DNA from: Candidatus Omnitrophota bacterium
GTDB lineage: Bacteria > Omnitrophota > Gorgyraeia > Tantalellales > Tantalellaceae
Direction of reading: 5' to 3'
Assembly (NCBI GenBank): GCA_049642065.1
Contig: JBAROK010000074.1
Coordinates: 4,114-68,113, forward strand
Length of the DNA: 64,000 nt
Shown: one piece after another, positions 1 through 18,740 of the stretch
How positions within the stretch are numbered: position 1 is the stretch's first letter
How the letters are laid out: each line of letters starts with the position of its first letter
Made by a program: the position numbers and the translations under genes
Notes under the pieces: model-generated
The model's input: only the letters and a program-made list of their open reading frames with translations
Told to the model about the DNA's origin: nothing
Database searches by the model: none

Positions 1-260
1 CTTTCGTACAATTATGGCATGGCGCCAGATTCACATACAAAGTCGCGTTAGCCCAATCCGTGAAAGGTTCATCCAATGCCTCGGCCTGACGTATCGCTTC
101 CACTTCGGCATGAACAGCGTTGACCCCGTATTTGCTATGCGACTCCAGTCTTCTTCTTGCGACCGTAACCACTATGTTACCGTCCCCGTCAACTAACCTT
201 GCAGCAACCGGTATGTTAGGATCAAGCTCTCCAGCATTCACCTTTTCTTTCGCGAACCGA
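1..260 (-). other. Domain of the giant protein: CDA/TadA-type zinc-dependent nucleotide deaminase domain, partial; continues beyond the window
   Basis: ...LVDGDGNIVVTVARRRLESHSKYGVNAVHAEVEAIRQAEALDEPFTDWANATLYVNLAPCHNCTK matches the TadA/CDA signature. HAE (H/C-x-E) is about 28 residues before PCxxC. The HAE codons are at about 104-112 and the PC..C codons at 8-22. Confidence 0.7.
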
Positions 261-3200
261 ATCAGTTCAGTCATATGCCGTCTATCCTCTTCGGAAAAGA
301 ACGCTCTTTCTCTTCTTAGTTTTTCAAGGTCATCGAGAACAGCATTGATCGAACCGCGAACTGAATCAATTCTTCCAATAAGCTCATCATAGCCGCCTTC
401 CCTTTGCGCCGCTCTAACCCCTTCCTCAAAATCATTGCTTATAAAGCCCACAAGGCTCCCTGCTTTTCCAATAGCTTGATTTCTGGATCGCGGCAGATTA
501 AAATGGACATCGTCTTTGATCCTCGCAAGGTTTAATGCAAGCTCTTCGCCCATACCCTTAATACATCTGGGACTGACTCTGCCTATCTCCTTCAAATTTA
601 TCCATAGATCCATAAACGTGGCATTTAATCTATTTGTAAAGCCCTCAATATTCCTTACATCCATGACTTCCTGGAGCCTTGCAAGAAATCCTACTTCTTG
701 TTCAATTAGCGGAAGCATACTATCATGCAAAGCAACAACTTTTTCCTTGTTATCCCCAAAAAGTTCAACACAGAAATCAATGTCGCGCTCCAGCTGTTCT
801 TTCTCAAATTCAGGACCGCTACGGCCGGTAAGTTCGTGTGCAAGCTCATGAAACAGGCCCGTCAAGACCAGTTTGCTTCTGGTCTTCTCATCTTCTATCT
901 CGTTAACCGCTTTGTTTATGCCTATAAATCCGTTTCTCCTGTGGTCCTCGAACATATAAGGTGAAACATCAAGCATGCCTATAACAATGGTATTCGGAAG
1001 CTCGTTAACGTCACCGTCGTAACGTTCAACAGTTTTTTCAAGCACTATCTGGACCAGTGCCCCTGAAAGACGTGTACCACGGTCGGTTACAACCCTGATA
1101 GCTCTATCTCCTACTGTTACCCAATTCTCCTCCGCCTTACCCATCCATATAAGAGTCCTGGCCAAGTCTTCCGTCTGATCGAGATATCTCACGTTCACCT
1201 GCATGCCACCCATCATGGAAACCGGGCTGTAATACGGGCTATCCTGACGGATCTTCATGCCTTCGGTGTGAACAGCTGAACCTGTCGCCATAGCAAGCTG
1301 TGTCGGCAATTCAAATCCTTTAGGAAAACTGCGTTCTTTAGCTTTGTGTTTTTCTATCCAATTTTTGCCCAGAAGGATCGGCGTGGGGGATTTAGTAATA
1401 CTCCAAGTAATATCACCAATAAAAGGAATCTTAATAAGACTGGCTTTCGCGTGTACGACTCCTTCCCTGTCACGTAAGATATGTTTTAACGGAAGATTCT
1501 TTAGAGCGCCTCCTTTCATTAAACTCCTGTATTTCGCCTTAGAGTCAGGCGCTTCTATATATTCCTTGTCTTTCGCGAAATATATCCCTTTCTTCCCCTC
1601 ATAATCACCAACAAAGAACCTGAAATCGCTAGGAATAACAAAAGATTCCTTTTTACCTTCCACCTCTACTTTGTGAGTATATTTTTTCTTTCTTTTGGGA
1701 AACACACATTTTACCGTGATCTGTGCCCTGTTCTTGCCTGTCGCAAAGTCCGGTGTTATCCTAACCGACTCCACATACTCCCAAGGGATTATCCCCGTGC
1801 CTTCAGCCCCTACCAGCATTTTAAGTGCAGATTTTTTTAACACAAGCGGCCTTTTATTTTTTTGGCTTATATCTCTGAGATGAAGAAGGAAATCTATAAG
1901 TGCTATTATCTTCTTATGGTCACCTTTGTTCTGTATGTTCATCTCTAAATATTTAAAGAGCATCCCGCGTACGTTACTTTCGGTGATCTCCATGGGCCCG
2001 GATTTTTCAGCAGCTTGAGCTGCTTTTATCCCGGCTCTATCCAACACCCACGCAGATACCCCAGCCCCGGCAAGCTGTAAGACCCCTCTTCTATTTATCC
2101 TCGCATCAGCTAAAAGCGAGGCGTATCCCCTTTGCCCCTCTTGCTTGATCGTCCAAACAATAGCATTAATAACCAGATGCGCCAGCATACTTAAACCCAA
2201 AGCAAGTGCCGGCTGATCGATGTACCTGAACGCGATTATAATTCCTGTAAAAGCAGCAATAATAGGCACCGTAAGAATATGTAGTTGCATTTTCACGAAA
2301 ATGGACTGGTCTGTCATGGCACTGGCCAGCTTGTCAGACCATCTCTGAAACATCATTTTACCGAAAACTACCGTTGTAGATTTATCCGCTTTCGCCTCTG
2401 CTGTGGCAAGATCACTATATCTCCATGAAGTTTCACGATCCGTTATATCTATAACTTTAGCAGGTACACTATTGATACCCCTGAGAGTGGCAGCTATACA
2501 TATGTTATAACCTTCTGCAATATAGTAATTCTCTCCCATCTTAACGACTACAGGCCGGCTCTCGGAAAGCATCTTTTTGAACTTTCCGTCTCTATAAAGG
2601 AAATATCTCAGGATAGTCCACGGGTTATATTGAACCGTGCGGGATACGGTGGTCGATTTTAGCTCAACCTCCCCGTCGTATATATTAGCTACGTTAGTGA
2701 TGTAATCTGGCTGAATACCGGCACATTCAGCAACTTCGTTTAAGACCTTTTCATACGCATCATCGGCCTCGAGATCAGCCTTATCGGCTTTTTTCTTGAT
2801 ATGCTCAATTGATAGAACATTAAGCAGTTCCCGTACTGCAGGCGGACCTCTTGTTCCCATAATATGCCCCAAAACAAATGCCCCGGCAACTGAAACAAGG
2901 AGTCCTGCAAATATACAACTATTAAGTAGCGGCATAGCCGGATTTAACCAGTCAAGGATAGCCTTTACAAGGAACGGTATACCTACCTTGCCAAGCTCTT
3001 CCAGTACGGGTGCGTGCAAAAACGGTGAATAACCGTCTATATTGGAACCAAGTGAGGCGGAGCCAGGCGCCGCATCGATTGGCGCAGGCAACCCTAAAGC
3101 TTTCTGTACAACCTTAGCTTCCGGGACATCTCTTTTCGCCAAATTCATCTTTTTCCGTTTTGCAACTAGCTCCTGGTACTTTTGCTTAAGTTGTTCCAGG

Positions 3201-6200
3201 TTGTCCTTAGCTTTTCCCTTGTCAAAGAATGACGCTTCTCCTAGATCAGGATAACTCTTAAACAGTTTTTCTGTCCTTTTTATACTCTCTCTCAGGTACT
3301 CTATAGCCTCGTCATACCCGGCAAGCACCTTTTCGATCTCTTCGTCATTGATATAACGCAATTTTTTTCGGGCACTCAGTATTACTTCTTCCGCTTTCCG
3401 CTGCACGGTATCGACCTCGTTCAGGCCTTTTCTTAAGTACTTGTTCAGAGATATAGCCCTCCAGTTCCTTATCCTTAGCTTGAAAATGAACCTACCAACT
3501 CGTTCCAATAACCCTCCGCCTATATTCCAAAGAAAGTGGCCGATATGTATTTGCCGCAGAGCTATGTCCTGGATACCCTTGGAACATACAATGTTTTCCA
3601 TGTGAGCATGTATTTCCCTGTTTATGTCCCTGCATTCAACAAAAAGTTTTTCAACTTCATCCAGATGGAAATCTTCAGCTTCTACTTCCGAAAGAACCAC
3701 ACCGTCATCCCCGCGTCCCCCGGTATAAGTCCAATGATAATACTTCTCTCCTCTCCCGCAAAAGACCTTGAGCGTGGGATGTAGGAATTCACTGCTCGAC
3801 CATATCCTTTCGGGGTGTTTGCGCGCAGTAAGTATAAAAGGAACGATCTTTACCAGCGCATCCGGTCTATCCATATTAGGCATGACCTTCATGGTCCGGA
3901 GTAGATCGGGATTTTCAAAAAGATCTTCGTACCCGAACCTCTCCTGCAAGGTCTTCAAGGAAACTTCCCAATGCTGGAACAGTGAACCATACTCTCCGCC
4001 TGGCGTGTACGGATAACCAAATGTGTCGACCGAACCGAACTCAAAAAATTTCCATTCAGGAACAAAACCTATATAGACGATCGAACCGCCCATGGAATGT
4101 CTTCCGGTATTTCGGACATACGCACGAAGAAGTGACGCAAGATAGACCAGGGCCGCATCTGTTCCCGCATCGACCCCATACTCTCCGCCCATCTGTTCTC
4201 TCAATTTCACTATGAAATCTAAGGCTTTATCCTGGTTTGTACCCTTCCAGTAATGAACGCTTGGCTCAACTCTCTCCCCAAAATTAGCTGCCACCGGAAG
4301 ATTCAGTGATGTAATCGCTAGTGGATGTTTTGAAAGCGGCGCTAAGGCCCTGGCCATGCCATCTTCACCCTTCCATTCTGACGGCGGTGCTGATAGAGGC
4401 TTAGCTTCGGGCGCTTCTGGAAGCGGACGCGGGAAATGGATGATCCCGTCAATACCCTCAACGTTAACATCGAGCCCTCTAAAATCGATAAATCCATACC
4501 GCTTACCCCCCTTAACCAGGTCCATGATCGCTCTTACTACCGGCAGAGTAATTGCCTGATGTTCTATTCCAAAAATACTTCCGTGTTCTCCTTCGCAAAC
4601 AGCAGCAACAAGCCCGTAAGGGATACCTCTATCCTCCAGCTGCTTTGGTATCTGACTAGAATCTCTTATATGAGCGTAACCTGTGATTACTGCCATATGG
4701 GCACAAGGATCTTCCTTAAGCGCCTTCTCCATTTGCCCGGCAAGATATTTACCCATGTACATGCCACGCTGAGAGCTTTGCTCATTATCATCCCAGGATG
4801 GATCTCTCTCCCCTGCCGGCATATCAATAAAAACAACTTTAATCCCTAAACGCTGCGCGACCGTTACCAGCTGTTCAAGACGATGCGGTATCCAGCAACT
4901 CTCGGAGATCTCGCTTATATTATCAACCTTGAGATCCGACGGTATCTCCAGCCCCAGGTGGGTAACACCGGCAGCTTTGAGCTGTTCAAGATAATTGACA
5001 AAACCTTTCTGTATACCCAAAGCACCATGATGGGTATCGCCGATAACCAGCACGTTCCTATCGGCAAACAACCCCTTGAAATCTACACCCTCGTGCCACC
5101 GGTTCTCAACGATCTCTTCCCACTTCTCATTATTCGTTCCGAATAAACCGCTACCATCGACGACACTCAAGGGCTTTTCTACCTGCTCTATTCTCTTCTT
5201 CCCCCTAAACGCGTTGTATATCCGCTTTGCCAAACCAGCAACAATTCCGCAGATCTCGTAGATGATTATAACAACACCACCTACAAGACAAACAGCAAGT
5301 AACATAACTAGTGTTGCTGCCGCCCACGAGCTCAGTTCTTTTCCCGCTTCGCTAGCCTTTACTGCGGTCTCAGCGGCCTCGATTATCCCTGGGGTTAACA
5401 AGCCAATAAGAAATACCAACAATCCAACCGGTCCACGTGAAATACCCGAAGAACCTGAATTCCCTTCTTCCGCTTTCTTTCCCTTCTTTTCGTTATATTG
5501 CTCAACCGCTTTTATTACATATTTGTGTGGATCTTTTGCAACAATTCTTAACTTCTCGGTCTCAGGATCCAATAGAATCGGTACTCTTTCGCCCTCTTCG
5601 TCCCTCCTTATTTCTATCCGACCACCTTGGTTTACTATTACAGTGAAATCTACACCACCAAACAGTTTCCCGTCTTTAAAAACTCCTGTTTTTTGTTCGC
5701 TTTTTACCTTTTTCACTCGTTCTCTAAGCATCTTTATATTATGCTCAACTATAAGGCGCGCTGTCCTTGCTTCAGCCAGAGCGACTTTATCTGCGGACGT
5801 CCACGTGCTAGTGAGCTTCTCGTAATCTATCCCCCTCTTTCGAAGCACCCTATTCACTTCCTTGCGCGTCTCTTCTGCCTCTTCGAGAAGATGATCCCGG
5901 TATTTCCCTTCTCCGGCCTTCTCTGCTCTAAGTTTAAGTTCCGCGATCTGGTAAAAAAGCCCCTGTATTTCCTCCATCGCTTTATCTGATAATGTCATGG
6001 GCACTTCGACCAGATGCCCCCATCTTCCTTCAGGGTCCATCTTTATCTTTCCACTCTCATCGACTTTAAGGCTAGGTGTTTCATTAAAATAGAGCTTATC
6101 TCCTCTCATTACCAAGCCCTGTCTGAAAAGACCTTCAAGAGCATTTGTATCCATCGGTCCTCTTTGTTCTCTTATGGGTCCGGCATCCTCGAAAGCAAAC

Positions 6201-9200
6201 CTACTTGAAGTGCTGCGCCTTGCCCTTTTTACTGATTTCCCTTGTGCCGGCTCCTCAGCAAAAGGCATTCTCCTGCTATCTGACTTTTTCGGCGGCTTCA
6301 TTACTTTTGTCGTATCCTGTCCTGGGTACGGCAACTGAATTTCCTGCTTGTTTTCTCTTATATAATCGCTAAGATCTTTGTCTGCCAAAGGAAACATCTC
6401 GCGCTGAAGGATACGTAAAAGATAATGCGGATTCTCATCCCACCCTTCATCCCAACCTTTCTCCCCTTCCTCATCCCTTTGCTCCTCCATTATGAACTGC
6501 ATAGTGTCCGTGGACGGCACAATAGACGTCTGATCCTCTCCGTCAAATGATATGACTACGTACCCGGATTCCATCCTAAGCTCCATGATACCTTTTTTGA
6601 TCAGATACTCTCCTATCTCGTGGAATTCAGCGATCGGATTCTCCTTAAGTTCCGAATAAAAGGCCAGCAGGTCATTTTCGGATGACGTAAAAGCGAAAAG
6701 GTCTTCTACCAGCACCCTGAACGTATACTCCTTGGCCTTTGTCTGGGCGTACCGGACCAGCATAGGATAGATGATATCTCTATAGTAAAACTCATTACCG
6801 GCAATAGCCGAGAGATTGGCCCCCAAATCCCTCATATTCATAAGTTCCCGCGGGATCAAACCAACAACATGTCTGTTTCCCTTGGAATCTATCGCCCTAA
6901 ACTTGCTGTTATCCGGGGACACCATCTCCACCCTCGCACTATTACCTATCTGTAAAGAAGGGCTCACTCCCTCTTCTAAATATTTTATTGCCGCGTCGAC
7001 AGACGCAAACCGGTCGTTCGGATCCCTCCTGATGCATCTCATGATAAATTCCGCAAGAGCATCCGGGATATCTTTCCCTTCTTTTTTAGCCATATCACGT
7101 ATGTCTGTGGGTTCCACGCGGGATTTATTATTGAAGTATTCGGCAATATTCCTTCCGTCGTACGGCAAAGGTACTTTGCCAGTCAATGCTTTGTACAATA
7201 TAATCCCTAATCCGTACACATCAGTACTTTTGTTATATTTTCCTTCTTCATGCAGCGGAAAAACTTCCCAAGGAAGATATTCAGGAGTACCTCGCACATC
7301 ATTGATTTTAAGCTCCCCGCTTTCCGGGAAACGCAGAGCAAGATCAAAATCCACCAAGAAAACAAGACTGGAAAAATCAAATTTGCCGCCTTTTCCCGGT
7401 AGAAGCATATTTGCCGGTTTTATGTCGGTGTGAACTATCCTTTTGCCCTGCACCTTTCTGATAATTTCCAGAACTTTTTTTGCTAGAGTTGCGGCCTCAT
7501 CCGGATTGAGCTGTCTTCCTGAATCGATTACAGTATCCAATGACTCTCCCGGAACAAACTCCGTAACCATAAAGAAATCCTCTCTGCCGTTACCACGTTC
7601 CCAGCGACCCATATCAAGCCCCTTAATAACCCCTCCAACTTCGCTCAAATATCTCATAACAAAATAGCCCTTTAAAAAGCTTGGGAGTTTTCTTCGTAAG
7701 TCCTTTGCTCCGGAATAACGTAAAACTCTCACGGTAACATCTGCCCCAGTCTTTAAATCTTTCGCTTTATACACCATAGAATACTCTCCGGTACCTAATA
7801 ACTTCTCCAACCTGTATCTTCCGGCAAGCATTGACGGGTCGCGCGAAGTGGCTGTTTCCTGCACACTTTTGAACATGAGCCGCATATCTGACAGTAAAGA
7901 TTCCATCTCTTCGCCACTCATAAGAAAACGTTCTGTTCTGACTAATTCATCAATGACCCATCCGATCAAAGCCTCCCTCAAGCGCACCAGATATTCTTCA
8001 ACACGCTCATTTTTCTCCTCCCGATCCGTAGCAGGCTTAAAGCAAGACCGCGCTTGCGATTCGCCAAGCAATATTTCTCTAATCGCTACTTTTGCAGAGT
8101 CATCCATATTTACAAGAGCGTCCAAGCTCTCACTAAAGACCTCATATTCCCCAGTCTCTGATTCTAGCTGCCCCTTAACATCTTTAAGGTTTTCAAAAAA
8201 CCTATCGACCAGAGAAGATTCCGACTCGACCGGATTATACCCACTGAAGGTAGAAGACAACAGTTCCACAACTAACCGGTAGTGCTTATCGCTAAAAAGC
8301 TTAATTTTTGTAGTCAGTTCTTTATCGTCGTCAACACTCCTATCAATAGAACCGTCTATGGAACTGTCCGTCAAAGAACGTCCGATCTGCGACGTATCTG
8401 GCTCCTCGTCACCAAAAAGGGTAAGCTGTCTCGGTTTGCCACGAGGCCTATCTTCCATCCGTGACCTGACTTTTTCTACAAGTTCCCGCGCCTTCTCTTC
8501 GGATAGTGACATCCACAAATCCTTTTCCCACTCATCCTCGGTCCAGGCAGTCCAGGTTATTGGCATACTTCTGAACCCTATGCCGCGAAAGAAATCTTTT
8601 GCGGACTTTCCTCCCTGTTTATCTTTATATTCTTCGTCCTCGGCAGGATGTACTATATACAGATTACGGCTAACTTCTTCTTCCGGTTCAAGATATACGG
8701 CTTCTCCGTCCGGAGCTACCATAGTGTTCTCTTGCTCTAACTCTTCCATGGCACGTTCCGTTATCTTGGCAATAAGAATTTCTCCTATTCCTTCACTCCG
8801 GTGCTTTGCGGAAACCTCCATGTAATCCCCTACCCATACTTTCCTGTTCTTCTCCTTGAATGGGAACTCTCCTTTCGTTGAAACAGATAGCCCAAGGATA
8901 TTCCCAGATGCGTCTTCCAGCTTTATCATACAAACCGGTCCACTCCCACCAGCAGCCCTTTTCGCGGCACTGTCCCACATCCCTCTGCTAAAGTAAGGCT
9001 TCTCTTCCTGTTCGAACCACCTGTCCAGCAGACTGCTCATCGCAGCAGAATCATTCACTTCCCGGGCATAATACCTCTTGTTCCCGATGCTGAATGGTCC
9101 GCTTATTGCGTCCTTGTGAGAAGACGACGCCTGCATTTGCTGTATCAGGCGAGTAAGCTCTATATCCTCTTGATCCCTACCAAATGTACCCTTACCAAAA

Positions 9201-11791
9201 AGATCCAGCTGAACAGCCCGGAGTAGGTAATGTGGGTCCTTTCCCCATGTCTTAGACCATTTCTCGTCTTTTGCTATTAACCAGTTACGGACATGTGTCG
9301 AAAGGAATACTCTAACAACCCTGCCGTCCTGCGTCCGTATTTCGACTTCTTTCCCGTCCCTGACCAAGCTAAGACTAATGGTGTATTTCCTGTTAAGGAA
9401 CTCTCCAATCTCGTGAAACAGAGCAATGGGGTTATCGATCAACTCTTCCTGCAGAGCAATAAGGTTATCTCCAGCAGATACAAACCCGAACAGATCCCCA
9501 ACAAGAGGATTAAAAGAATATAACTCCGGCGGAGAGTTCTCCAAAAGTTCTAAAAATAGTTCCATCACGGACCTGCACTCGGGCTTGCGAGCCATGAACA
9601 ACCTTAAAGCCTCTTTCGCTTTTCCAAGCTCGGCCGCGTTAAGCTCCATCCGTTCTTTAAGAACCTTATTCCTGTCCTCCGCATCCGAAACAGAAACATA
9701 TTTCCTGTCGTTTAATCCAAACACCCTGCTGGGTATTGCCTTTTTACCTATTCGCGAAGACTCCGTTACAACGGAAGACTTTTTCGCCACGAAACCGCCC
9801 AAACGCGCATATCTGTTCTCTTTACGCTTCATAAAAAATTCTTGAGGAATAAATCCGGCAAAGCCTAATTCTTCCAATTTCTTCTGAACAGATTCCTCTT
9901 TTTCGTGAATCCCTATGAAAACTACTTCTACATGCCCGGCCTTGATATCACTATATAATTCGTCCGCCCCGCTGTATTCGGATTCGTTTTTAGTATTGCC
10001 TCTTTTATCCTTGTACACAAGATGAGGCTGTGTGTCCGGATCATCTATAAGAGTGCGTAACGAAGTAGACAAAAGACCGTCTCTCAGCAACCTCTCTATC
10101 ACTTCTGTCTGCATAGGGTAACGCCCATCAAGACCGTCAGGTTCGGAATCCCTGAAATCAAGATAAGAAACTGTCCCACCCGGTTTAAGAACGCGTGCGA
10201 TCTCTTCAAGGATAAACTCCCGATCATGTTTATTGATTACCTGACTAAGCGTGCGGTGCATAACAAGCGCGTCAACTGACGCATCCGGCAATGGAATGCC
10301 ATGAGCCAAGTCACTCTGCTCAAATGCCAGCGCCGGTTTTTTTGCCTGTTTCATTTCTTTTACAGCCGCCCATGCAGAAGCATCTCCAACAAGATTTCCA
10401 GACATTTCGATCGTTTTTTTCTTAGCTTTTTTTATGTTATTTGGGTTAATGTCCAGCCCGAGAACCGAAAACCCTTTATCGTTCATCCACCTGGCTATCT
10501 GCCCTTCTCCACAGCCAAGATCCACAATAACAACCGGCTCGCTTTTCTCAGATACCTGTTCCTTTAAAGTGTTAACGAATTTTACGGGATACGTCCCCTC
10601 GTAAGGGTATTCCGTTCCGCTATACCCTGTGATCTGAGAAGCTGTGAATGTCACAACATTTTCGTTTTTCTCGCCTTTTCTCGAAACCAATACAAGCATA
10701 AGATCCGCAAAAGACCTGCCTCTCTCAATTATGCTAAATCCTGCATCTATTGCCGCCTTCCCCGTATCGGCTATTTCATAGAATTCCGCCATCAGCTTCT
10801 GAAATTCATTATCGCTTAACTCGTACTCCGGTTCGGCTACATCCTCAGCGACTATCATCCCTCCCGGCTTCAGCACCTTGACACATTCACCAAAAAACCT
10901 CTTTTGCGCATTAAAATGTGCCTCCGCTCTCTTACGTATATCTTCCCGAGTATGCCCTAGCGCATCAATCCCACTGGGCACAAAATCAAGAATATTTCTG
11001 AAGATAATCGCATCGAACTGATCACTAGGCAACGTAAAGGGCTGGTTAAAATCCATTTCCACTACTTTTACCTCATCTGCTCCTGCCTTTATAAGACTAC
11101 CCTTGAGTCTACTTATATCCTCATGATCTATATCAACGGCTGTGACCTCTGCGCCCTCACTTGATAGCGCAAGTATATGATCCGGGTTTGACCCTACTCC
11201 CAGTTCAAGTACTTTCTTGCCTTTTAGATTTCCTCCCAATATTTCTTTGAGCTTGGATACTATCGCAGGAGCCTTGCCTGCACCTTTCTTCGTATCGTCC
11301 GAAATGCTTTCTATTTTGATCTTGCTTTCGTCTTTTTGGATCTCGGCTATATCCTCGCAGCTAGAAGTTATCCTGAACTTCTTTCCCTTATTAGGACCGT
11401 CAAATATTTGAAGGTCTACACGAGTCTTCCCGTCTTCCTTTCTCGGATTGGAAAGAACATCTAGGAGACGGTCTCTACTTACTTCAGGCGCAACGCTGAG
11501 CCACTTATCCAACTCAGAGTTTATATCCTGAAACGGGACCATATCTTCTTTAAGCGCCATCGCGAGAATACACGCAAGTTCTAAACGTACCTGCGTATCG
11601 AACTGGCGGCCTGTTACATCCAGGATAGGCTTGAACATTGATTGGATCTGCAGCGTGTGGTGGGCATTAATACGAAGCTCACGACCCATATCGGGATACG
11701 CCCATGCGATATTATTGATTGTGAATAGGCATACTATTGCTATCGCGATTATCTTGATCAGTGTCCTGTGCTTCCTATTTAAGGAGTTCAT
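1..11791 (-). CDS. Giant secreted multi-domain protein, at least 3,930 aa, 3'-truncated by the window edge. Modules: signal peptide, 2x SAM-MTase, GNAT, atypical STK-like, ChaN/Tiki-like, ParB-like, HExxH, CDA/TadA-like deaminase
   Basis: Manual codon-by-codon minus-strand translation from ATG at 11791 to position 1 met no stop. The ORF track lists no closed minus ORF of 60 aa or more in 1-11790, only short antisense plus ORFs. An in-frame TAA lies 21 nt upstream of the ATG. N-terminus reads MNSLNRKHRTLIKIIAIAIVCLFTINNIAWA, a Sec signal with an AxA site. Domain motifs are listed in the separate entries below. Confidence 0.85.
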   Translation of the reverse strand, partial: MNSLNRKHRTLIKIIAIAIVCLFTINNIAWAYPDMGRELRINAHHTLQIQSMFKPILDVTGRQFDTQVRLELACILAMALKEDMVPFQDINSELDKWLSVAPEVSRDRLLDVLSNPRKEDGKTRVDLQIFDGPNKGKKFRITSSCEDIAEIQKDESKIKIESISDDTKKGAGKAPAIVSKLKEILGGNLKGKKVLELGVGSNPDHILALSSEGAEVTAVDIDHEDISRLKGSLIKAGADEVKVVEMDFNQPFTLPSDQFDAIIFRNILDFVPSGIDALGHTREDIRKRAEAHFNAQKRFFGECVKVLKPGGMIVAEDVAEPEYELSDNEFQKLMAEFYEIADTGKAAIDAGFSIIERGRSFADLMLVLVSRKGEKNENVVTFTASQITGYSGTEYPYEGTYPVKFVNTLKEQVSEKSEPVVIVDLGCGEGQIARWMNDKGFSVLGLDINPNNIKKAKKKTIEMSGNLVGDASAWAAVKEMKQAKKPALAFEQSDLAHGIPLPDASVDALVMHRTLSQVINKHDREFILEEIARVLKPGGTVSYLDFRDSEPDGLDGRYPMQTEVIERLLRDGLLSTSLRTLIDDPDTQPHLVYKDKRGNTKNESEYSGADELYSDIKAGHVEVVFIGIHEKEESVQKKLEELGFAGFIPQEFFMKRKENRYARLGGFVAKKSSVVTESSRIGKKAIPSRVFGLNDRKYVSVSDAEDRNKVLKERMELNAAELGKAKEALRLFMARKPECRSVMELFLELLENSPPELYSFNPLVGDLFGFVSAGDNLIALQEELIDNPIALFHEIGEFLNRKYTISLSLVRDGKEVEIRTQDGRVVRVFLSTHVRNWLIAKDEKWSKTWGKDPHYLLRAVQLDLFGKGTFGRDQEDIELTRLIQQMQASSSHKDAISGPFSIGNKRYYAREVNDSAAMSSLLDRWFEQEEKPYFSRGMWDSAAKRAAGGSGPVCMIKLEDASGNILGLSVSTKGEFPFKEKNRKVWVGDYMEVSAKHRSEGIGEILIAKITERAMEELEQENTMVAPDGEAVYLEPEEEVSRNLYIVHPAEDEEYKDKQGGKSAKDFFRGIGFRSMPITWTAWTEDEWEKDLWMSLSEEKARELVEKVRSRMEDRPRGKPRQLTLFGDEEPDTSQIGRSLTDSSIDGSIDRSVDDDKELTTKIKLFSDKHYRLVVELLSSTFSGYNPVESESSLVDRFFENLKDVKGQLESETGEYEVFSESLDALVNMDDSAKVAIREILLGESQARSCFKPATDREEKNERVEEYLVRLREALIGWVIDELVRTERFLMSGEEMESLLSDMRLMFKSVQETATSRDPSMLAGRYRLEKLLGTGEYSMVYKAKDLKTGADVTVRVLRYSGAKDLRRKLPSFLKGYFVMRYLSEVGGVIKGLDMGRWERGNGREDFFMVTEFVPGESLDTVIDSGRQLNPDEAATLAKKVLEIIRKVQGKRIVHTDIKPANMLLPGKGGKFDFSSLVFLVDFDLALRFPESGELKINDVRGTPEYLPWEVFPLHEEGKYNKSTDVYGLGIILYKALTGKVPLPYDGRNIAEYFNNKSRVEPTDIRDMAKKEGKDIPDALAEFIMRCIRRDPNDRFASVDAAIKYLEEGVSPSLQIGNSARVEMVSPDNSKFRAIDSKGNRHVVGLIPRELMNMRDLGANLSAIAGNEFYYRDIIYPMLVRYAQTKAKEYTFRVLVEDLFAFTSSENDLLAFYSELKENPIAEFHEIGEYLIKKGIMELRMESGYVVISFDGEDQTSIVPSTDTMQFIMEEQRDEEGEKGWDEGWDENPHYLLRILQREMFPLADKDLSDYIRENKQEIQLPYPGQDTTKVMKPPKKSDSRRMPFAEEPAQGKSVKRARRSTSSRFAFEDAGPIREQRGPMDTNALEGLFRQGLVMRGDKLYFNETPSLKVDESGKIKMDPEGRWGHLVEVPMTLSDKAMEEIQGLFYQIAELKLRAEKAGEGKYRDHLLEEAEETRKEVNRVLRKRGIDYEKLTSTWTSADKVALAEARTARLIVEHNIKMLRERVKKVKSEQKTGVFKDGKLFGGVDFTVIVNQGGRIEIRRDEEGERVPILLDPETEKLRIVAKDPHKYVIKAVEQYNEKKGKKAEEGNSGSSGISRGPVGLLVFLIGLLTPGIIEAAETAVKASEAGKELSSWAAATLVMLLAVCLVGGVVIIIYEICGIVAGLAKRIYNAFRGKKRIEQVEKPLSVVDGSGLFGTNNEKWEEIVENRWHEGVDFKGLFADRNVLVIGDTHHGALGIQKGFVNYLEQLKAAGVTHLGLEIPSDLKVDNISEISESCWIPHRLEQLVTVAQRLGIKVVFIDMPAGERDPSWDDNEQSSQRGMYMGKYLAGQMEKALKEDPCAHMAVITGYAHIRDSSQIPKQLEDRGIPYGLVAAVCEGEHGSIFGIEHQAITLPVVRAIMDLVKGGKRYGFIDFRGLDVNVEGIDGIIHFPRPLPEAPEAKPLSAPPSEWKGEDGMARALAPLSKHPLAITSLNLPVAANFGERVEPSVHYWKGTNQDKALDFIVKLREQMGGEYGVDAGTDAALVYLASLLRAYVRNTGRHSMGGSIVYIGFVPEWKFFEFGSVDTFGYPYTPGGEYGSLFQHWEVSLKTLQERFGYEDLFENPDLLRTMKVMPNMDRPDALVKIVPFILTARKHPERIWSSSEFLHPTLKVFCGRGEKYYHWTYTGGRGDDGVVLSEVEAEDFHLDEVEKLFVECRDINREIHAHMENIVCSKGIQDIALRQIHIGHFLWNIGGGLLERVGRFIFKLRIRNWRAISLNKYLRKGLNEVDTVQRKAEEVILSARKKLRYINDEEIEKVLAGYDEAIEYLRESIKRTEKLFKSYPDLGEASFFDKGKAKDNLEQLKQKYQELVAKRKKMNLAKRDVPEAKVVQKALGLPAPIDAAPGSASLGSNIDGYSPFLHAPVLEELGKVGIPFLVKAILDWLNPAMPLLNSCIFAGLLVSVAGAFVLGHIMGTRGPPAVRELLNVLSIEHIKKKADKADLEADDAYEKVLNEVAECAGIQPDYITNVANIYDGEVELKSTTVSRTVQYNPWTILRYFLYRDGKFKKMLSESRPVVVKMGENYYIAEGYNICIAATLRGINSVPAKVIDITDRETSWRYSDLATAEAKADKSTTVVFGKMMFQRWSDKLASAMTDQSIFVKMQLHILTVPIIAAFTGIIIAFRYIDQPALALGLSMLAHLVINAIVWTIKQEGQRGYASLLADARINRRGVLQLAGAGVSAWVLDRAGIKAAQAAEKSGPMEITESNVRGMLFKYLEMNIQNKGDHKKIIALIDFLLHLRDISQKNKRPLVLKKSALKMLVGAEGTGIIPWEYVESVRITPDFATGKNRAQITVKCVFPKRKKKYTHKVEVEGKKESFVIPSDFRFFVGDYEGKKGIYFAKDKEYIEAPDSKAKYRSLMKGGALKNLPLKHILRDREGVVHAKASLIKIPFIGDITWSITKSPTPILLGKNWIEKHKAKERSFPKGFELPTQLAMATGSAVHTEGMKIRQDSPYYSPVSMMGGMQVNVRYLDQTEDLARTLIWMGKAEENWVTVGDRAIRVVTDRGTRLSGALVQIVLEKTVERYDGDVNELPNTIVIGMLDVSPYMFEDHRRNGFIGINKAVNEIEDEKTRSKLVLTGLFHELAHELTGRSGPEFEKEQLERDIDFCVELFGDNKEKVVALHDSMLPLIEQEVGFLARLQEVMDVRNIEGFTNRLNATFMDLWINLKEIGRVSPRCIKGMGEELALNLARIKDDVHFNLPRSRNQAIGKAGSLVGFISNDFEEGVRAAQREGGYDELIGRIDSVRGSINAVLDDLEKLRRERAFFSEEDRRHMTELIRFAKEKVNAGELDPNIPVAARLVDGDGNIVVTVARRRLESHSKYGVNAVHAEVEAIRQAEALDEPFTDWANATLYVNLAPCHNCTK
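700..1000 (-). other. Domain of the giant protein: HExxH zincin-like metallopeptidase motif region
   Basis: LVLTGLFHELAHELTGRSGPEFEKEQLE, with HELAH at about 826-855. Confidence 0.4.
2140..2300 (-). other. Segment of the giant protein: second predicted transmembrane-helix cluster, preceded N-terminally by a twin-arginine-like motif
   Basis: Hydrophobic runs IFVKMQLHILTVPIIAAFTGIIIAFRY and ALALGLSMLAHLVINAIVWTI. The RR-like motif ARINRRGVLQLAGAGVSAWVL lies at about 2060-2100. Confidence 0.45.
2440..2560 (-). other. Segment of the giant protein: degenerate ParB/Srx-fold-like segment
   Basis: RPVVVKMGENYYIAEGYNICIAATLRGINSVPAKVIDITDRE follows the ParB N-domain pattern (Y.iIaGeRR..Aa.l.G...vPa.V.d) but has GYN in place of the GERR/GHHR arginines. 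Confidence 0.25.
4600..5110 (-). other. Domain of the giant protein: ChaN/Tiki/TraB-superfamily-like domain
   Basis: VLVIGDTHHGALGIQKGFVNYLEQLKAAGVTHLGLEIP fits the ChaN N-terminal pattern [VI]LLGExHD...H. The C-terminal AVITGYAHIRDSSQIPKQL fits the ChaN GxGHV...P..L motif. Confidence 0.4.
5230..5440 (-). other. Segment of the giant protein: internal pair of predicted transmembrane helices
   Basis: GPVGLLVFLIGLLTPGII and WAAATLVMLLAVCLVGGVVIIIYEICGIVAGL are long hydrophobic stretches separated by a short polar loop. Confidence 0.5.
7000..7830 (-). other. Domain of the giant protein: Hanks-type Ser/Thr protein-kinase-like domain with non-canonical catalytic motifs
   Basis: Glycine loop LGTGEYSMVYKA. 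A VTVRVL strand with R where VAIK has K. Catalytic loop HTDIKPAN (HRD becomes HTD). DFDLA (DFG becomes DFD). GTPEYLPWE. DVYGLGIILYKALTG. Confidence 0.65.
8700..9010 (-). other. Domain of the giant protein: GNAT-like acetyltransferase motif region
   Basis: VWVGDYMEVSAKHRSEGIGEILIAKITERA resembles GNAT motif A (R/Q-x-x-G-x-G/A), about 8762-8803. Confidence 0.4.
10120..10600 (-). other. Domain of the giant protein: class-I SAM-dependent methyltransferase fold, copy 2
   Basis: VVIVDLGCGEGQIARW (about 10495-10545) and ARVLKPGGTVSYLDF (about 10155-10190). Confidence 0.65.
10800..11270 (-). other. Domain of the giant protein: class-I SAM-dependent methyltransferase fold, copy 1
   Basis: Motif I-like VLELGVGSNPDHILAL (about 11171-11212) and post-II motif VKVLKPGGMIVAEDV (about 10845-10885). 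Confidence 0.6.
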
Positions 11792-11835: not shown

Positions 11836-11864
11836 ATTATATAATAGACCCCCTATTAGGTCAA
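11836..11864 (-). promoter_or_regulatory. Candidate sigma70-type promoter for the giant gene
   Basis: On the minus strand: TTGACC at 11864-11859, a 17-nt spacer, TATAAT at 11841-11836, about 45 nt upstream of the ATG at 11791. The region is AT-rich, so a chance match is possible. No strong Shine-Dalgarno precedes the ATG. Confidence 0.4.
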
Positions 11865-11995
11865 TAAAAAGTAAGCTAGGAATTGTTTTTTTAACGTTTT
11901 GTAAGTGCTTGTAATTACAGGGTTTATGTTGGGTAGTTATAAAAACGTCCCGGAAGTGGTTACTCCCGAGACAGAATATGTAAATAATAAAAAAA

Positions 11996-12069
11996 TGGAG
12001 CGAGCGATGGGGATCGAACCCACGTAGGAAGCTTGGAAGGCTTCTGCACTACCATTGTGCTACGCTCGC
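11996..12069 (-). tRNA. tRNA-Gly (anticodon TCC)
   Basis: Reverse complement GCGAGCGTAGCACAATGGTAGTGCAGAAGCCTTCCAAGCTTCCTACGTGGGTTCGATCCCCATCGCTCGCTCCA. The 7-bp acceptor stem pairs with CGCTCGC. Anticodon loop CTTCCAA. T-loop TTCGATC. CCA is encoded. A T7 run follows the 3' end. Confidence 0.85.
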
Positions 12070-12118
12070 TCTTTATATAAGAAAATAATATACACTTTCT
12101 GCAGGCGTTGTCAAGTCC

Positions 12119-12763
12119 TTACTTCCGCCCCTTCCCTCTCCTCTCATATATCTGCGGAGCAAATATGATAACAGGAACGAGAAGAAACACATAAAGAGAA
12201 GCCAAAGGATACACAACAGCCATTACCATCGCTAAAAGCCCCACTAACGGGAGCACCAAAGACCTGCGTCTTATCAGTTTAATATGTTTAATATCCAAGC
12301 TAGGTCCGATAAGGCGGTACTCTTTCGTAGCATACATCCAGTTGCAAAGAAAAAGCATACCAAGGATGAACATGTTGGATGCAAAAAAGAAAGCAGGTAT
12401 CGTCTGCCTCGGATAATCCCCAACCAGGGAGGTGGAAAACGGCACTAACGCAGTGAACATAAGTATGATGAGGTTTATCCACATATGCCTGCGCTCAGTA
12501 CGTTTTATGTAATGGAACTGCTGGTGATGCATGATCCAGAAGTTCGCCAGAAGAAGAAAGCTTACGGCACAATTAAAAAATTCCTGAAACTGATCCGTAA
12601 AAAAACTCCTGACCGTCATGGGAGCCAACGCCTTACCTGTACCCGGCAGATTAATAGTCCAGAAAAGAAGCGTCATGGATATGGCAAAGATACCGTCCGT
12701 AAGCGTCGTCAACCGGCTAACAGTTATTCCGCGTTCGGTTTTTTCTCCATCAGTTGCGGTCAT
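12119..12763 (-). CDS. DUF1211 / TMEM175-family membrane protein (putative K+ channel)
   Basis: RLTTLTDGIFAISMTLL resembles the DUF1211 signature (RLEAFSDGVFAIAITLL). Several hydrophobic helices. Confidence 0.6.
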   Translation of the reverse strand: MTATDGEKTERGITVSRLTTLTDGIFAISMTLLFWTINLPGTGKALAPMTVRSFFTDQFQEFFNCAVSFLLLANFWIMHHQQFHYIKRTERRHMWINLIILMFTALVPFSTSLVGDYPRQTIPAFFFASNMFILGMLFLCNWMYATKEYRLIGPSLDIKHIKLIRRRSLVLPLVGLLAMVMAVVYPLASLYVFLLVPVIIFAPQIYERRGKGRK

Positions 12764-13176
12764 TATTGCTCTCCTCCCTGCTGGCTCCCGCTGATCAGAG
12801 CTTTCTCAACCGCTTCCAATATAGCGGTACTGGTCATTGTAGCCCCCGTGATAGCATCCACATTTACGGTTTGCAGCTCTATAACTCGTTCAATTACCCC
12901 CTTCGCCAAGTCCACAGATGGATCAACACGAGACTCAACGATCCTGATGTCCTCGATCTTCCCGCTGGTTACCGTAACCTCCACCCTTATCACAGTCTCA
13001 TCATAGTCGGAATGTTCCCCAGTATACACCCCATCAGGAATGTTGCCTATATCGACCTCCTCGAACTGCCCATATGCTATAGTCGCAATAAGAAACATAA
13101 ATGTTGCCGCTAAGGCGGACATTAATTTTATACTGGCTTTCATATTATTCCTTACCGCTGAGAAGCGACCCTTCAA
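12763..13176 (-). CDS. Exported FMN-binding domain protein
   Basis: N-terminal signal/anchor. VDAITGATMTSTAILEAV matches the FMN_bind (NqrC/RnfG-type) flavinylation motif. Confidence 0.6.
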   Translation of the reverse strand: MKGRFSAVRNNMKASIKLMSALAATFMFLIATIAYGQFEEVDIGNIPDGVYTGEHSDYDETVIRVEVTVTSGKIEDIRIVESRVDPSVDLAKGVIERVIELQTVNVDAITGATMTSTAILEAVEKALISGSQQGGEQ

Positions 13177-13903
13177 ACTTTTTCAAAGCTCCACCAATAG
13201 CTGCCCCTTGCTTACCTGAAAACAGTTTTGATGAAGATAACAGCTGATCCGTGATATTATCCGTAAGCTTATTCATCTCAAAGTTCGCAAGCTTGGATAC
13301 GGTAGTCTTTGCCAGAGCTTTTACCATGATCAAACTTATCACCGACTCCAGATCCGTTATATTCTCGTAAGTTTCATCAATATTGACGTCAAACTCCTGG
13401 ATCTTAGGCTCACCGACCTGAGAATAGTCTTTATACATAACCTTACCGACTTTAAGACGGAGCTTGTCTATCTGCAGCTTGATGTCCTCTGACTTTTGGG
13501 GAGCTGCTTTTTGCTTGCCGTCATCCTGCGCCATCTTAAGCGAATCAAGATTAAGCTCGCCTTTTTTGTTCTTCTCAACGATAAACTCTTTTAGCTCAAC
13601 ATTGACTTCTTTCAGGTGCACCTTGCCCCTAAAGAAAGATGGAAGATCATAATCAACGTATATCTTAGGCATATCCAGCATTATCTTGTCCTTAAACCCT
13701 TTTGGATTGTACAGACGTAAGTTCTCAATATCGATAAGTGTCTTCAGGATACCCATTTTGAAACTTCCGATACTCAGTTTAAGACCCGTAACCCCCTGGA
13801 CCCCTCTTTCCAGCGATACCTTGACTATAGTGTCCTTGGCAGCTGAAAGCGCTAACATTATCGCCAGCACTCCAATAAAAATATAAATCCATGTCTTTTT
13901 CAT
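13145..13903 (-). CDS. Hypothetical exported protein
   Basis: Complete ORF with N-terminal signal/anchor (MKKTWIYIFIGVLAIMLALSAA), tightly packed with neighbours. No recognised motif. Confidence 0.5.
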   Translation of the reverse strand: MKKTWIYIFIGVLAIMLALSAAKDTIVKVSLERGVQGVTGLKLSIGSFKMGILKTLIDIENLRLYNPKGFKDKIMLDMPKIYVDYDLPSFFRGKVHLKEVNVELKEFIVEKNKKGELNLDSLKMAQDDGKQKAAPQKSEDIKLQIDKLRLKVGKVMYKDYSQVGEPKIQEFDVNIDETYENITDLESVISLIMVKALAKTTVSKLANFEMNKLTDNITDQLLSSSKLFSGKQGAAIGGALKKFEGSLLSGKE

Positions 13904-14652
13904 CTCATCCCCCCTTTTCTTTCATCGGAACTTTTATGAACACCCGTAAGACCTTGAAGAAGAATGGCACCACACTGGTCTATCTCCGGCTGGGCATCTC
14001 TCATGCCACCCTCGATAACATCCCCGTAAATAGTGTTAAGCCGCGCGATAAGCGCCTGGCGCTCCTCTGCATTGATACCAAGATACGTCAATTTACCATA
14101 CTCATCAGGCGTTGTATCTAAAATAGCGTGACTGACAAGCACTGAACAGTCCGAAAGCATATCCATGGCCTCGTTCATTTTCGGATATTGTTCACTGATT
14201 CTGCGAATAAACGGGTTTGGATTAAACTTCTTCCCCGAACTTTCCCACAACTCTCCCTGCTTCTCAAGTATTTCATTGAGACATCCTATATAAACATCAT
14301 AACTCTTTACCGCAAGTATTGCGGCTTTCCTTACTTCAGGGTCCTTGGGAACCTCATATTTGACTATAACCTTACGCATCTCTATCATATCCGCTCTTGC
14401 TCGCCTTATGTCCTCCATGTAATCATTAAGAAACGCTTTATTGTCATTAGGCTCCCCAACAGGCTTTCCGATTCTATCCATTTCCCTTATCTTTTTAAGA
14501 TGCCCAAGTCCTTCAACATAATCCCGAGCAAACTCATATTTGTAGGTTTGGGCCTCTTCTTGGCATACTGCGCTACCTGAAATAAAACAAAAGATTGCAA
14601 GTAAACAAAATATTTTTTTCATTCTACTTTTCCTCTTGTTTCGGTTTCTCAA
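13900..14652 (-). CDS. Hypothetical exported protein
   Basis: ORF with a signal peptide (KKIFCLLAIFCFISGSAVC). Overlaps the upstream gene by 4 nt (coupled). Confidence 0.5.
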   Translation of the reverse strand: MRNRNKRKSRMKKIFCLLAIFCFISGSAVCQEEAQTYKYEFARDYVEGLGHLKKIREMDRIGKPVGEPNDNKAFLNDYMEDIRRARADMIEMRKVIVKYEVPKDPEVRKAAILAVKSYDVYIGCLNEILEKQGELWESSGKKFNPNPFIRRISEQYPKMNEAMDMLSDCSVLVSHAILDTTPDEYGKLTYLGINAEERQALIARLNTIYGDVIEGGMRDAQPEIDQCGAILLQGLTGVHKSSDERKGGMR

Positions 14653-14851
14653 AAACCATCCCGTAATCCTTTATCTCCATGATCTGGGTCTTACCCAATC
14701 GCCAAGTCCTTCCGGTAACACTGTCGTATTTTACCGCTCCGAAAACGCTATCCATTGAAACCTTGTACCTACCGGGAAGGTTTATGCCTATAATTAAAGA
14801 CGATATTATAATGCTAATGCCGATAATGACCGCGATAATAATATCCTTCAT
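14624..14851 (-). CDS. Small membrane protein (hypothetical)
   Basis: 75-aa ORF with one hydrophobic helix in a compact minus-strand array. Weak. Confidence 0.3.
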   Translation of the reverse strand: MKDIIIAVIIGISIIISSLIIGINLPGRYKVSMDSVFGAVKYDSVTGRTWRLGKTQIMEIKDYGMVFEKPKQEEK

Positions 14852-14865
14852 CTCTCCTCCTTAAG

Positions 14866-15435
14866 TTACAACAGTTCCAGGTTATACTGACGTAACCTGG
14901 CGTCTATAGCTTTAGCGTTACCGAAAATACCGTCAAGCTCTCTCCAGAACTCTTTCCGGTGATTCTTGATACGCGTATGCATAAGTTCATGCAGTATAAC
15001 ATAATCTGCTAGCTCTTCCGAAAGCGACATCAACTTCACGTTAAGCGATATATTATTGTTATGGGAACAACTACCCCATCTGGTCTTCTGGTTCCTGATG
15101 AAAAGTTTGCGATAGGTAAAACCATGTTCCGTTGCGAGCTGGTTGACTTTTCCCGTTAATTTAACCCGGGCTTCCGGCTCGTCAATATCTGCCGTACTCT
15201 GCGCAGCCAGATCATATTCTCTTTCCACCCGCCTAATCCTGGCAATATGTTTCTTTATCCAGTCCACCTTGGAGTGAACGATTTGTTCAGCTTCCTCGAA
15301 AGAGATCCCGTAAGGTATAGCTACTCTTACACCCTTGAAAGGTATCACGAAAATGTTCAGATATTTTGACCTCTTGCTGCGTTCAAGGATCACTGCTCCC
15401 ACGCCATCGATATTTATCGTTAAGGCTTTTGCCAT
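14866..15435 (-). CDS. DUF45/YgjP-like (SprT-like) metal-dependent hydrolase
   Basis: RWGSCS...ISLN...DYVILHELMH...NHRKEFW is the DUF45 HExxH signature. Confidence 0.7.
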   Translation of the reverse strand: MAKALTINIDGVGAVILERSKRSKYLNIFVIPFKGVRVAIPYGISFEEAEQIVHSKVDWIKKHIARIRRVEREYDLAAQSTADIDEPEARVKLTGKVNQLATEHGFTYRKLFIRNQKTRWGSCSHNNNISLNVKLMSLSEELADYVILHELMHTRIKNHRKEFWRELDGIFGNAKAIDARLRQYNLELL

Positions 15436-15440
15436 AGAAA

Positions 15441-16142
15441 CTATTCTGGATTATCTTTCTTTTCTTCTATTTCGTCCGTTTTGTGTGCTCTTACGGATTC
15501 TTTTATGCGCGCTATTTCCGTTTTGGCTATTTCCGGCACTTTGCACCTGTCGAATTCGTCCATATCCAGGAACATCTCTAACATAGCTTCTTTCCCGTTA
15601 TAGAACATCCCTGTATGGATTATCTGTACCTTTTTTCTGCCAAAAACGTTCTCCACGATAAGACACTCTGGTCTTCCGTATTTGATATCTTTATCAAGCG
15701 GACATCCGGGACACTTCTCTTGATTATCCTTTATCATTTCCCAGCATTTGCCGCCCAGGAACGGACGGCCCACCCATTCCTCTATCGTCTTATTCATAAA
15801 AAGTATATTTCCCTGGGTATCAACCACCTCGATACCGAAAGGGATCGTCGTCAATACCACGTTATCAAAATCAACGATATCACGCAGAGCTCTCTCGCTT
15901 GATTCTAAGGCCTCTTCCAGCCTCCTAAGTTTAGCTACGACTTTTGCAATAATTAGACCAAATACGGGAAAAACTATCATTATCACCACACGCAGATACG
16001 CATCATGCGGTGCTACCATCGTCACTACCGACTGCCAGAAAGTTCCTTGAAAAAAGAAAAGATAATCCACGACGGCATCCAGCACCCACATGGACAACCC
16101 GAGAATAACTGCTGCCAGTACTATTTTGTGTTCTACTTTCAT
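15441..16142 (-). CDS. Membrane-anchored PAS-like sensor domain protein
   Basis: Two N-terminal transmembrane segments, then a PAS-like segment (IVDFDNVVLTTIPFGIEVVDTQGNILFMNK) and a Cys-rich CPGCP stretch. Confidence 0.5.
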   Translation of the reverse strand: MKVEHKIVLAAVILGLSMWVLDAVVDYLFFFQGTFWQSVVTMVAPHDAYLRVVIMIVFPVFGLIIAKVVAKLRRLEEALESSERALRDIVDFDNVVLTTIPFGIEVVDTQGNILFMNKTIEEWVGRPFLGGKCWEMIKDNQEKCPGCPLDKDIKYGRPECLIVENVFGRKKVQIIHTGMFYNGKEAMLEMFLDMDEFDRCKVPEIAKTEIARIKESVRAHKTDEIEEKKDNPE

Positions 16143-16173
16143 TCGAATACCTTACAAAAATACTTCCCAGACC

Positions 16174-16368
16174 TTATTCCCAGTTATTTCTTTCTTTCGA
16201 GGCCTCCTGGATATCCCCTATCTTTGATTTTGTCTTCTTGTAGGATTCCAGTTGAGGTGCTCCTGCCATCTGCTCTATGATACCCGGCTCACTAGACCCG
16301 CTCTTACCGGATTCGCACCCAGACAAGATCACCAAAATGCAGGCTATACAAATAAGAAATAATCGCAT
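16174..16368 (-). CDS. Small lipoprotein (hypothetical)
   Basis: Lipobox LSGC after a hydrophobic signal. 64 aa. Confidence 0.4.
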   Translation of the reverse strand: MRLFLICIACILVILSGCESGKSGSSEPGIIEQMAGAPQLESYKKTKSKIGDIQEASKERNNWE

Positions 16369-16527
16369 ATTTTAATATACCTACTCCCGGCTTGGCTTGC
16401 AAGGAACTCTATACTAATTTTACTATATTATACCCCTTAACTTTGCCCTTGTCGATTATTGGCATCTCTGCTACCATAAAATATATTTATAAGAGAACAT
16501 TCACACCAAAAATAAAGGAGGCCTACC

Positions 16528-16890
16528 ATGATCGAAATACTTCCAAAAAGCCAGGGAAATATTATGGGCATTAAGGCGAGCGGGCGACTTACCGCCCAGG
16601 ATTATGAAGAAATACTTATCCCAAAAATCGAAGAAGTGCTTAAAAATAACGAGCGTGCACGTTTTCTGTATTATATTTCCGATGATCTTGAAGGTATCGA
16701 GCCGGGCGCTATGTGGGACGACGCAAAGTTCGCTAGCGGCCACAGGGATAGGTTCGACAAGATAGCTATAGTCACTGACTCAAAATGGATGCAGTGGTCC
16801 AGCAAACTTGTTTCTTACTTCCTGCAAGGCGAGGTAAAATCTTTCCCGGGCGATCAGCTGGATGAGGCCTGGATCTGGATAGAAGCATAA
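16528..16890 (+). CDS. STAS/SpoIIAA-like domain protein (DUF3478-like)
   Basis: The only convincing plus-strand gene. AAAGGAGG Shine-Dalgarno 6 nt upstream of the ATG. Sequence pattern matches SpoIIAA-like small proteins. Confidence 0.6.
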   Translation: MIEILPKSQGNIMGIKASGRLTAQDYEEILIPKIEEVLKNNERARFLYYISDDLEGIEPGAMWDDAKFASGHRDRFDKIAIVTDSKWMQWSSKLVSYFLQGEVKSFPGDQLDEAWIWIEA

Positions 16891-16894
16891 GCTT

Positions 16895-17290: not shown

Positions 17291-17305
17291 CCTTTTCTTT
17301 CTCTA

Positions 17306-18670: not shown

Positions 18671-18740
18671 TACTCCCTCCTTATATTTAACCTGATTAAT
18701 ATATTATAATACCGAAAATATTGCAAATTAAATGATTATA

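Follow-up and report, generated by a model that had tools for sequence, protein, structure and literature searches.

At the edge of a 64,000-nucleotide (64-kb) stretch of Candidatus Omnitrophota DNA, referred to below as the window, a giant gene on the minus strand encodes a deaminase domain fused to an extension of its own. What is new is that this two-domain deaminase module is conserved as internal cargo of exported or membrane-threaded giant multi-enzyme proteins. The best explanation overall, which we favour with modest confidence, is that of an exported cargo deaminase inside a chromosomal multi-enzyme giant protein of an uncultured Omnitrophota bacterium. Omnitrophota are host-dependent nanobacteria, and the greater part of the sequence of their giant proteins has no known counterpart. 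The module described here is discrete, conserved and confidently modelled, has an obvious catalytic site, and can be cloned and assayed alone.

The zinc-deaminase signature described in an earlier sequence-only reading of the window held up on inspection. In the minus-strand frame that has its last visible codon ending at window nucleotide (nt) 2, direct reading gives ...GVNAVHAEVEAIRQAEALDEPFTDWANATLYVNLAPCHNCTK, and the histidine, the glutamate and both cysteine ligands are all in place. The second zinc ligand, on which that reading had made its assignment depend, is present, with both Cys3925 and Cys3928 encoded inside the window. The features that define the signature are as follows.

nt 1..11791, minus strand: giant open reading frame (ORF), residues 1-3930 of 5,108 visible, from the ATG at nt 11791 (MNSLNRKH...) and running off the window at nt 1.
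nt 2..301, minus strand: first 100 residues (3831-3930) of the 277-residue deaminase-plus-extension module, from Pfam, a 21-sequence alignment and AlphaFold2.
nt 104..112, minus strand: His3894-Ala-Glu3896, first zinc ligand and catalytic glutamate (codons at nt 110-112 and nt 104-106), by direct reading; invariant in 21 of 21 sequences.
nt 8..19, minus strand: Cys3925-His-Asn-Cys3928, second and third zinc ligands (codons at nt 17-19 and nt 8-10), by direct reading; invariant in 21 of 21 sequences.

Nucleotides 2-301 cover helix 1 and strands 1-3 together with the HAE and CxxC motifs, and the HAE-to-PC spacing is 27 residues. Across the six frames of the window the pattern [HC][AGS]E-x20-40-[PSL]CxxC occurs a single time. 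The Pfam profile PF00383 (dCMP_cyt_deam_1) matched residues 3842-3930 with an E-value (E) of 5.1e-11 and a score of 42.8 bits, against a cut-off of 25. Since this match covers profile positions 6-88 of 102, the deaminase domain is cut by the window edge, just as the sequence-only reading had said. The full-length deaminase domain encoded at a related locus (L001) scored 45.4 bits for the same profile and cut-off.

Of the giant ORF, 3,930 codons are visible in the window and the other 1,178 lie beyond its edge. The final 700 residues seen in the window served as query for an exhaustive HMMER search, which returned a 100 % identical protein (P0001, NCBI MGB2651530.1) that is 5,108 residues long and bears the NCBI title 'MAG: methyltransferase domain-containing protein [Candidatus Omnitrophota bacterium]'. 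The same 5,108-residue ORF was found in three records, two from NCBI and one from ENA. Cluster members are held by the loci L002 (ENA) and L003 (GCA_049642105.1), both of which match the window at 99.99 % identity across 21.8 kb and so could be used as the missing extension. This identity also rules out a fusion by misassembly, which the sequence-only reading had kept as an alternative. The module junctions are retained in a 64 % identical relative at L001, of which 4,412 residues are visible. The description of the deaminase as lying at the distal end of the giant protein was correct for the visible part only; in the full protein another 1,178 residues follow. We note that L001 (CAZMEZ010000042.1) is labelled 'uncultured Planctomycetia bacterium' while its giant protein is 64 % identical to the one named Candidatus Omnitrophota; the taxonomic label of L001 is probably coarse or wrong.

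In the full-length protein the deaminase occupies residues ~3831-3985 of 5,108, about 77 % of the way along the chain, and the extension runs to residue 4107. The collection that was searched consists of representatives of 50 % identity clusters of 1.84 billion proteins. Within it, this type of deaminase is carried by ~28 cluster representatives. The alpha/beta extension of ~120 residues is always fused to the deaminase, the two together making up the 277 residues (3831-4107), and this module recurs in ~25 representatives, at an internal position each time. The whole 277-residue stretch could be aligned end to end in more than 20 representatives, and one protein (P0008) carries two tandem copies of it. 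Those representatives that have a source name are called Omnitrophota. In a module alignment of 21 sequences at 31-65 % identity to the query, H64, E66, C95 and C98 were invariant, as were Q197, D204 and G242 of the extension, and the motifs 'QVxVFDADLW' and 'LNPxKxHVLLIVG' were nearly so. The proline of PCxxC varied among the 21 homologues (P/S/L). As judged from the sequence, the catalytic site of the deaminase is intact.

AlphaFold2 folded the 277 residues into a single compact unit (predicted local distance difference test 92.2, predicted template-modelling score 0.89), with the deaminase fold first, then a long helix, then a three-stranded beta-alpha-beta unit. In this model the alpha/beta/alpha deaminase fold is complete. 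The deaminase domain is acidic: its median isoelectric point is 5.4, and in the window protein it carries a net charge of about -10. The extension gave no significant match in Pfam or among PDB sequences. Two candidate assignments for it were rejected: in 'VFDADLW', read as a HAD phosphatase motif, the first Asp (the HAD nucleophile) varies to N, P or E and only the second is invariant, and a match suggesting an SRP54/SIMIBI GTPase remnant was not significant (E 0.19).

The relation of the module to named deaminases was judged from sequence matches and from the family cut-offs of NCBIfam. The best PDB sequence match was T4 dCMP deaminase (1vq2, E 8e-6); E. coli TadA (E 1e-3) and yeast cytosine deaminase (E 3e-3) were matched as well. 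The module shows fold similarity to TadA, and 17 of 21 homologues weakly matched the TadA model NF008113, for which the module scored 26.2 bits against a cut-off of 150. There was no stand-alone full-length member among the representatives of the kind expected for TadA, a stand-alone protein of ~150-170 residues. The dCMP deaminase model TIGR02571 (ComEB/T4 Cd) gave 25.6 bits against a cut-off of 219, and the RibD model TIGR00326 gave 35 bits against 156; RibD is recognised by its score together with a C-terminal DHFR-like reductase domain, and the module falls outside that definition. The NCBIfam model for anti-phage dCTP deaminase was matched weakly and far under its cut-off. Because the named families were matched so far under their cut-offs, we place the module in a clade of its own inside the TadA/dCMP-deaminase/RibD/guanine-deaminase group. 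The module is outside all named families of that group and probably outside the characterised toxin clades.

Export and topology were judged from a Kyte-Doolittle hydropathy scan together with positive-inside counts, which gave the following features for the window protein.

nt 11699..11791, minus strand: N-terminal signal-peptide-like segment, residues 1-31 (...NNIAWA|YP), by direct reading and hydropathy scan.
nt 2147..5437, minus strand: predicted membrane segments, residues 2119-2141, 2152-2191, 2952-2979, 3168-3191 and 3194-3215, by Kyte-Doolittle hydropathy.

In at least 12 relatives the sole hydrophobic segment is the N-terminal one, and there is no membrane segment between it and the deaminase. 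The N-terminal segments of those relatives have a positive n-region and an AxA-type site (GWA|QEE, AYA|QGQ, SLA|EQK). Since no membrane segment intervenes in these proteins, the module is predicted to lie on the exported side wherever the topology is unambiguous.

The carrier is a multi-enzyme protein, for which the domains found by Pfam are two methyltransferases, one Ser/Thr kinase and the deaminase; most of the remainder is unmatched. Its other modules are listed here.

nt 10112..11224, minus strand: two S-adenosylmethionine (SAM)-methyltransferase domains, residues ~190-320 and 401-560, Pfam Methyltransf_11/25/31, E down to 8e-29.
nt 9134..9757, minus strand: 'IGKRA' module copy A, zincin-like, residues 679-886.
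nt 7004..7816, minus strand: Ser/Thr protein-kinase domain, residues 1326-1596, Pfam PF00069, E 7e-34.
nt 6344..6955, minus strand: 'IGKRA' module copy B, residues 1613-1816.
nt 752..1276, minus strand: HExxH-containing module, residues ~3506-3680 (HELAH at nt 836-850), without a Pfam match.
Off the window: 'IGKRA' module copy C, residues 4107-4323, directly after the deaminase module.

The ~1,120 residues after the deaminase comprise the extension, the zincin-like IGKRA module, a third SAM-methyltransferase-like domain, which Pfam matches weakly in this protein and above threshold in L001, and, at the C-terminus, a conserved domain that ends in ...LFLLAA. The IGKRA and HExxH modules could not be assigned to a known Pfam peptidase, since neither Pfam (E up to 1) nor the PDB sequences gave a match; DUF4157, which we had taken to be a candidate family for them, was unsupported by Pfam. 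The HExxH region was shared with other giant proteins more widely than any other part of the query, as most of the 101 matches fell at query positions 270-450. Among relatives that carry the deaminase, Pfam confirmed HD, PHP, GNAT, methyltransferase and epimerase modules as partners. Radical SAM in the relative P0043 is taken from the NCBI name, and the NTase-, HAD- and PRTase-like motifs of relatives come from reading the sequences by eye. The deaminase-carrying proteins form two sets with shared conserved N- and C-terminal domains. A non-polar ...xA tail ends 39 of 104 related representatives, 24 of which end in 'AA' (LFLLAA, VLVAA, TLIAA); it is found on two distinct conserved C-terminal domains and resembles an ssrA-like or tail-specific-protease recognition end. 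Between the membrane segments of the window protein, at nt 2855-3300 on the minus strand (residues ~2980-3167), lies the stretch …VVVKMGENYYIAEGYNICIAATLRGINSVPAKVIDIT…, which also occurs beside the deaminase in P0008 and P0005. By eye it is ParB/sulfiredoxin-like; Pfam gave only a weak, sub-threshold VapB-like match (in P0008).

The sequence-only reading had taken the deaminase for the C-terminal domain of a polymorphic toxin with a small immunity gene next to it, and on both counts the longer sequence contradicted it. The deaminase ends near residue 3985 of 5,108 and is internal in at least 20 relatives too. In L003 the stop codon of the giant gene is followed on its 3' side by a GC-rich hairpin, then tRNA-Thr(GGT), then the start of tuf, and the region after the stop holds no ORF resembling an immunity gene. 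A tRNA-Thr likewise follows the stop of the giant gene in L001. In L004 a further ORF, at least 3,153 residues long, comes after the 7,388-residue P0005, and in L005 the 3,548-residue relative P0013 has biotin genes on one side and a Cob_adeno_trans gene on the other. No conserved downstream partner or immunity ORF was found at L001, L004 and L005. The second giant ORF of L004 (32455-41915) begins 288 nt past P0005 and is cut by the contig end. By Pfam, neither the window protein nor that of L001 contains trafficking or pre-toxin domains of the Rhs, PAAR, LXG, TPS or MafB-N type, or the like, and the only trafficking feature present is a Sec-type signal-like segment.

If the deaminase is exported cargo, then the giant polypeptide would pass through Sec and the deaminase would fold only outside the producer's cytoplasm. 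Export as an unfolded chain would explain the missing immunity gene. The exported enzyme would hydrolytically deaminate a cytosine, adenine or guanine ring, most likely in free nucleotides, nucleosides or bases that stem from the cell of a host or prey, and less likely in RNA or DNA, and it would work alongside neighbouring phosphoesterase-type modules. The repeated zincin-like IGKRA modules may, more speculatively, cut the giant protein into separate enzymes. The lean towards mononucleotide, nucleoside or base substrates comes from the acidic deaminase domain and its phosphoesterase-type companions. Several points weigh against this picture. Net charge is weak evidence on substrate, and the tRNA-acting structural neighbours TadA and ADAT2 score almost as high as the small-molecule ones. 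At 29.6-45 bits, most homologues exceed the threshold of 27 set for Pfam MafB19-deam, always with a higher score of their own for PF00383; TadA-like proteins commonly exceed that threshold. In the window protein 5-6 further hydrophobic segments precede the deaminase, and because the parity of the membrane passes is ambiguous by hydropathy and positive-inside counts, the module could face the cytoplasm.

In a different reading the module is a nucleic-acid-editing effector that, after export and maybe zincin release, deaminates tRNA, RNA or DNA in the host or prey. Such a protein would be a toxin by function without the build of a polymorphic toxin. What keeps this reading in play are the almost equal similarity to TadA/ADAT2 and the amino-methyltransferase-like modules next to the deaminase; we regard it as possible, if doubtful. 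A bolder form of the proposal, which we think somewhat unlikely, holds that the 277-residue unit is an undescribed exported TadA/dCMP-deaminase-like family whose extension serves as a regulator or in substrate recognition, and that, after passage through Sec and possibly release by a zincin, it edits RNA or DNA inside a cell that is host or prey to a nanobacterial predator, with immunity provided by compartmentation. If the editing reading were true, this would be the first giant-protein module of Omnitrophota to be assigned an activity.

The ambiguity in membrane topology leaves room for a metabolic enzyme of dCMP/CMP/guanine type or TadA type on the cytoplasmic face of a scaffold anchored in the inner membrane, which might replace a missing housekeeping gene. 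If residues 2152-2191 form one helix, then the region past residue 3216 lies in the cytoplasm, which fits the positive-inside flanks. The fold matches housekeeping deaminases, and many Omnitrophota giants with methyltransferase, GNAT, HD and HAD domains have been read as membrane-anchored cytoplasmic arrays (10.64898/2026.06.07.730766). We nevertheless consider a cytoplasmic enzyme distinctly unlikely, given that in the relatives with unambiguous topology the deaminase stands directly behind a cleavable-looking signal peptide with no more membrane segments, and that the scores for housekeeping families in NCBIfam are far too low (TadA 26 against 150, ComEB 26 against 219, RibD 35 against 156). 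A C-terminal polymorphic-toxin deaminase of the DddA, SsdA or BaDTF kind with an adjacent immunity gene would account for a CDA-superfamily domain within a very large protein bearing an export signal, and some relatives show weak, sub-threshold Pfam matches to the SNAD4, XOO_2897 and APOBEC models. It is contradicted on its defining architecture, at both the C-terminal tip and the adjacent immunity gene, and is highly improbable. The notion of an inactive, structural or assembly-artefact domain can draw on the unconserved proline of PCxxC and on nothing else specific. With the His, the Glu and the two Cys unchanged in all 21 sequences at 31-65 % identity, the same 5,108-residue ORF in three records and the junctions kept in a 64 % identical relative, that notion is barely credible.

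The giant gene sits in a chromosomal setting. Outside the giant gene the window looks like any bacterial chromosome, with polA, rho, prfA, murA, fhs, mnmA, ftsH and four tRNAs, at a GC content of 45 %. The composition profile showed no anomaly across the giant gene and no hint of a compositionally foreign origin. The 64-kb window forms one long co-oriented stretch, with almost all genes on the minus strand and a GC skew of about -0.2 throughout. Upstream of the giant gene the following features were found.

nt 11836..11864, minus strand: promoter-like site TTGACC-17-TATAAT upstream of the giant ORF, by consensus match only.
nt 11946-11973: terminator-like hairpin before the promoter-like site.
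nt 11996..12069, minus strand: tRNA-Gly(TCC), directly upstream of the giant gene and part of a tRNA-tuf cluster.

The order of this conserved cluster (window 11996-21641, minus strand; L003 25328-25876) is tRNA-Thr(TGT), tRNA-Tyr, [9 kb], tRNA-Gly(TCC), [giant gene], tRNA-Thr(GGT), tuf. It is thus interrupted by the giant gene and by a ~9-kb block of small ORFs of unknown function. According to a 2026 preprint, EF-Tu and ribosomal genes lie in hypervariable regions of most Omnitrophota chromosomes.

What the module would mean depends on its substrate. If nucleotides are the substrate, the module points to an exported nucleotide-scavenging enzyme array. If nucleic acids are the substrate, it would stand for a new toxin logic without an immunity gene, and would offer a new TadA-like base-editor scaffold that is compact and predicted to fold well. 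In either case, a large exported protein with a deaminase is not automatically a polymorphic toxin.

Among known enzymes, the closest housekeeping or small-molecule group of the CDA fold comprises Msmeg3575/Msd (5xkq), T4 and human dCMP deaminase (1vq2, 2w4l), the RibD deaminase domain, yeast cytosine deaminase, guanine/guanosine deaminase and TadA/ADAT2. In contrast to these, the module is only 18-25 % identical to them and lies under every NCBIfam equivalog cut-off, has its own fused extension of ~120 residues, and resides inside giant proteins with export signals. The polymorphic-toxin deaminases (DddA/SCP1.201, SsdA/DYW-like BaDTF2, MafB19) are like the module in that a CDA-superfamily domain is carried in a large protein with an export signal.

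As for the carrier, long multi-enzyme proteins of Omnitrophota with signal peptides and transmembrane segments have been described previously (10.1101/2023.11.21.568195; 10.64898/2026.06.07.730766), and the protein studied here, with its NCBI name, signal-like and transmembrane segments, two or three methyltransferases, kinase and deaminase, is one of them. The closest kinds are the 'Archaeovorin'-type giants (West-Roberts et al. 2023, 10.1101/2023.11.21.568195) and the 'multi-enzyme cluster' class of Pfam Module 1 (MTase/GNAT/HD/HAD) (10.64898/2026.06.07.730766). As far as a word search shows, neither these two papers nor Seymour et al. 2023 mentions a deaminase. Common to those giants and this protein are the phylum by NCBI naming, the signal peptide with interspersed membrane segments, the many enzyme domains and the Pfam-dark stretches. 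The enzyme set is shared in kind, with methyltransferases, a GNAT-like domain and a kinase, and with HD, PHP and radical SAM in relatives. At 5,108 residues the protein does not reach the 'giant' size of Archaeovorins (at least 30,000 residues, West-Roberts et al.) and is a smaller relative in kind; the published giants in focus have 10-30 thousand residues or more, against 5.1 thousand here. Unlike them, it lacks glycoside hydrolases, glycosyl transferases and dockerins.

A further comparison is with the MARTX-type multi-effector toxins, which are giant exported polypeptides with an array of internal enzyme modules and a built-in peptidase. The likeness lies in a giant, apparently exported multi-enzyme chain with putative peptidase modules that may be able to release the enzymes. 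Unlike MARTX, the protein has neither RTX repeats nor a cysteine protease domain, and its putative peptidase would be a weakly supported zincin-like HExxE module.
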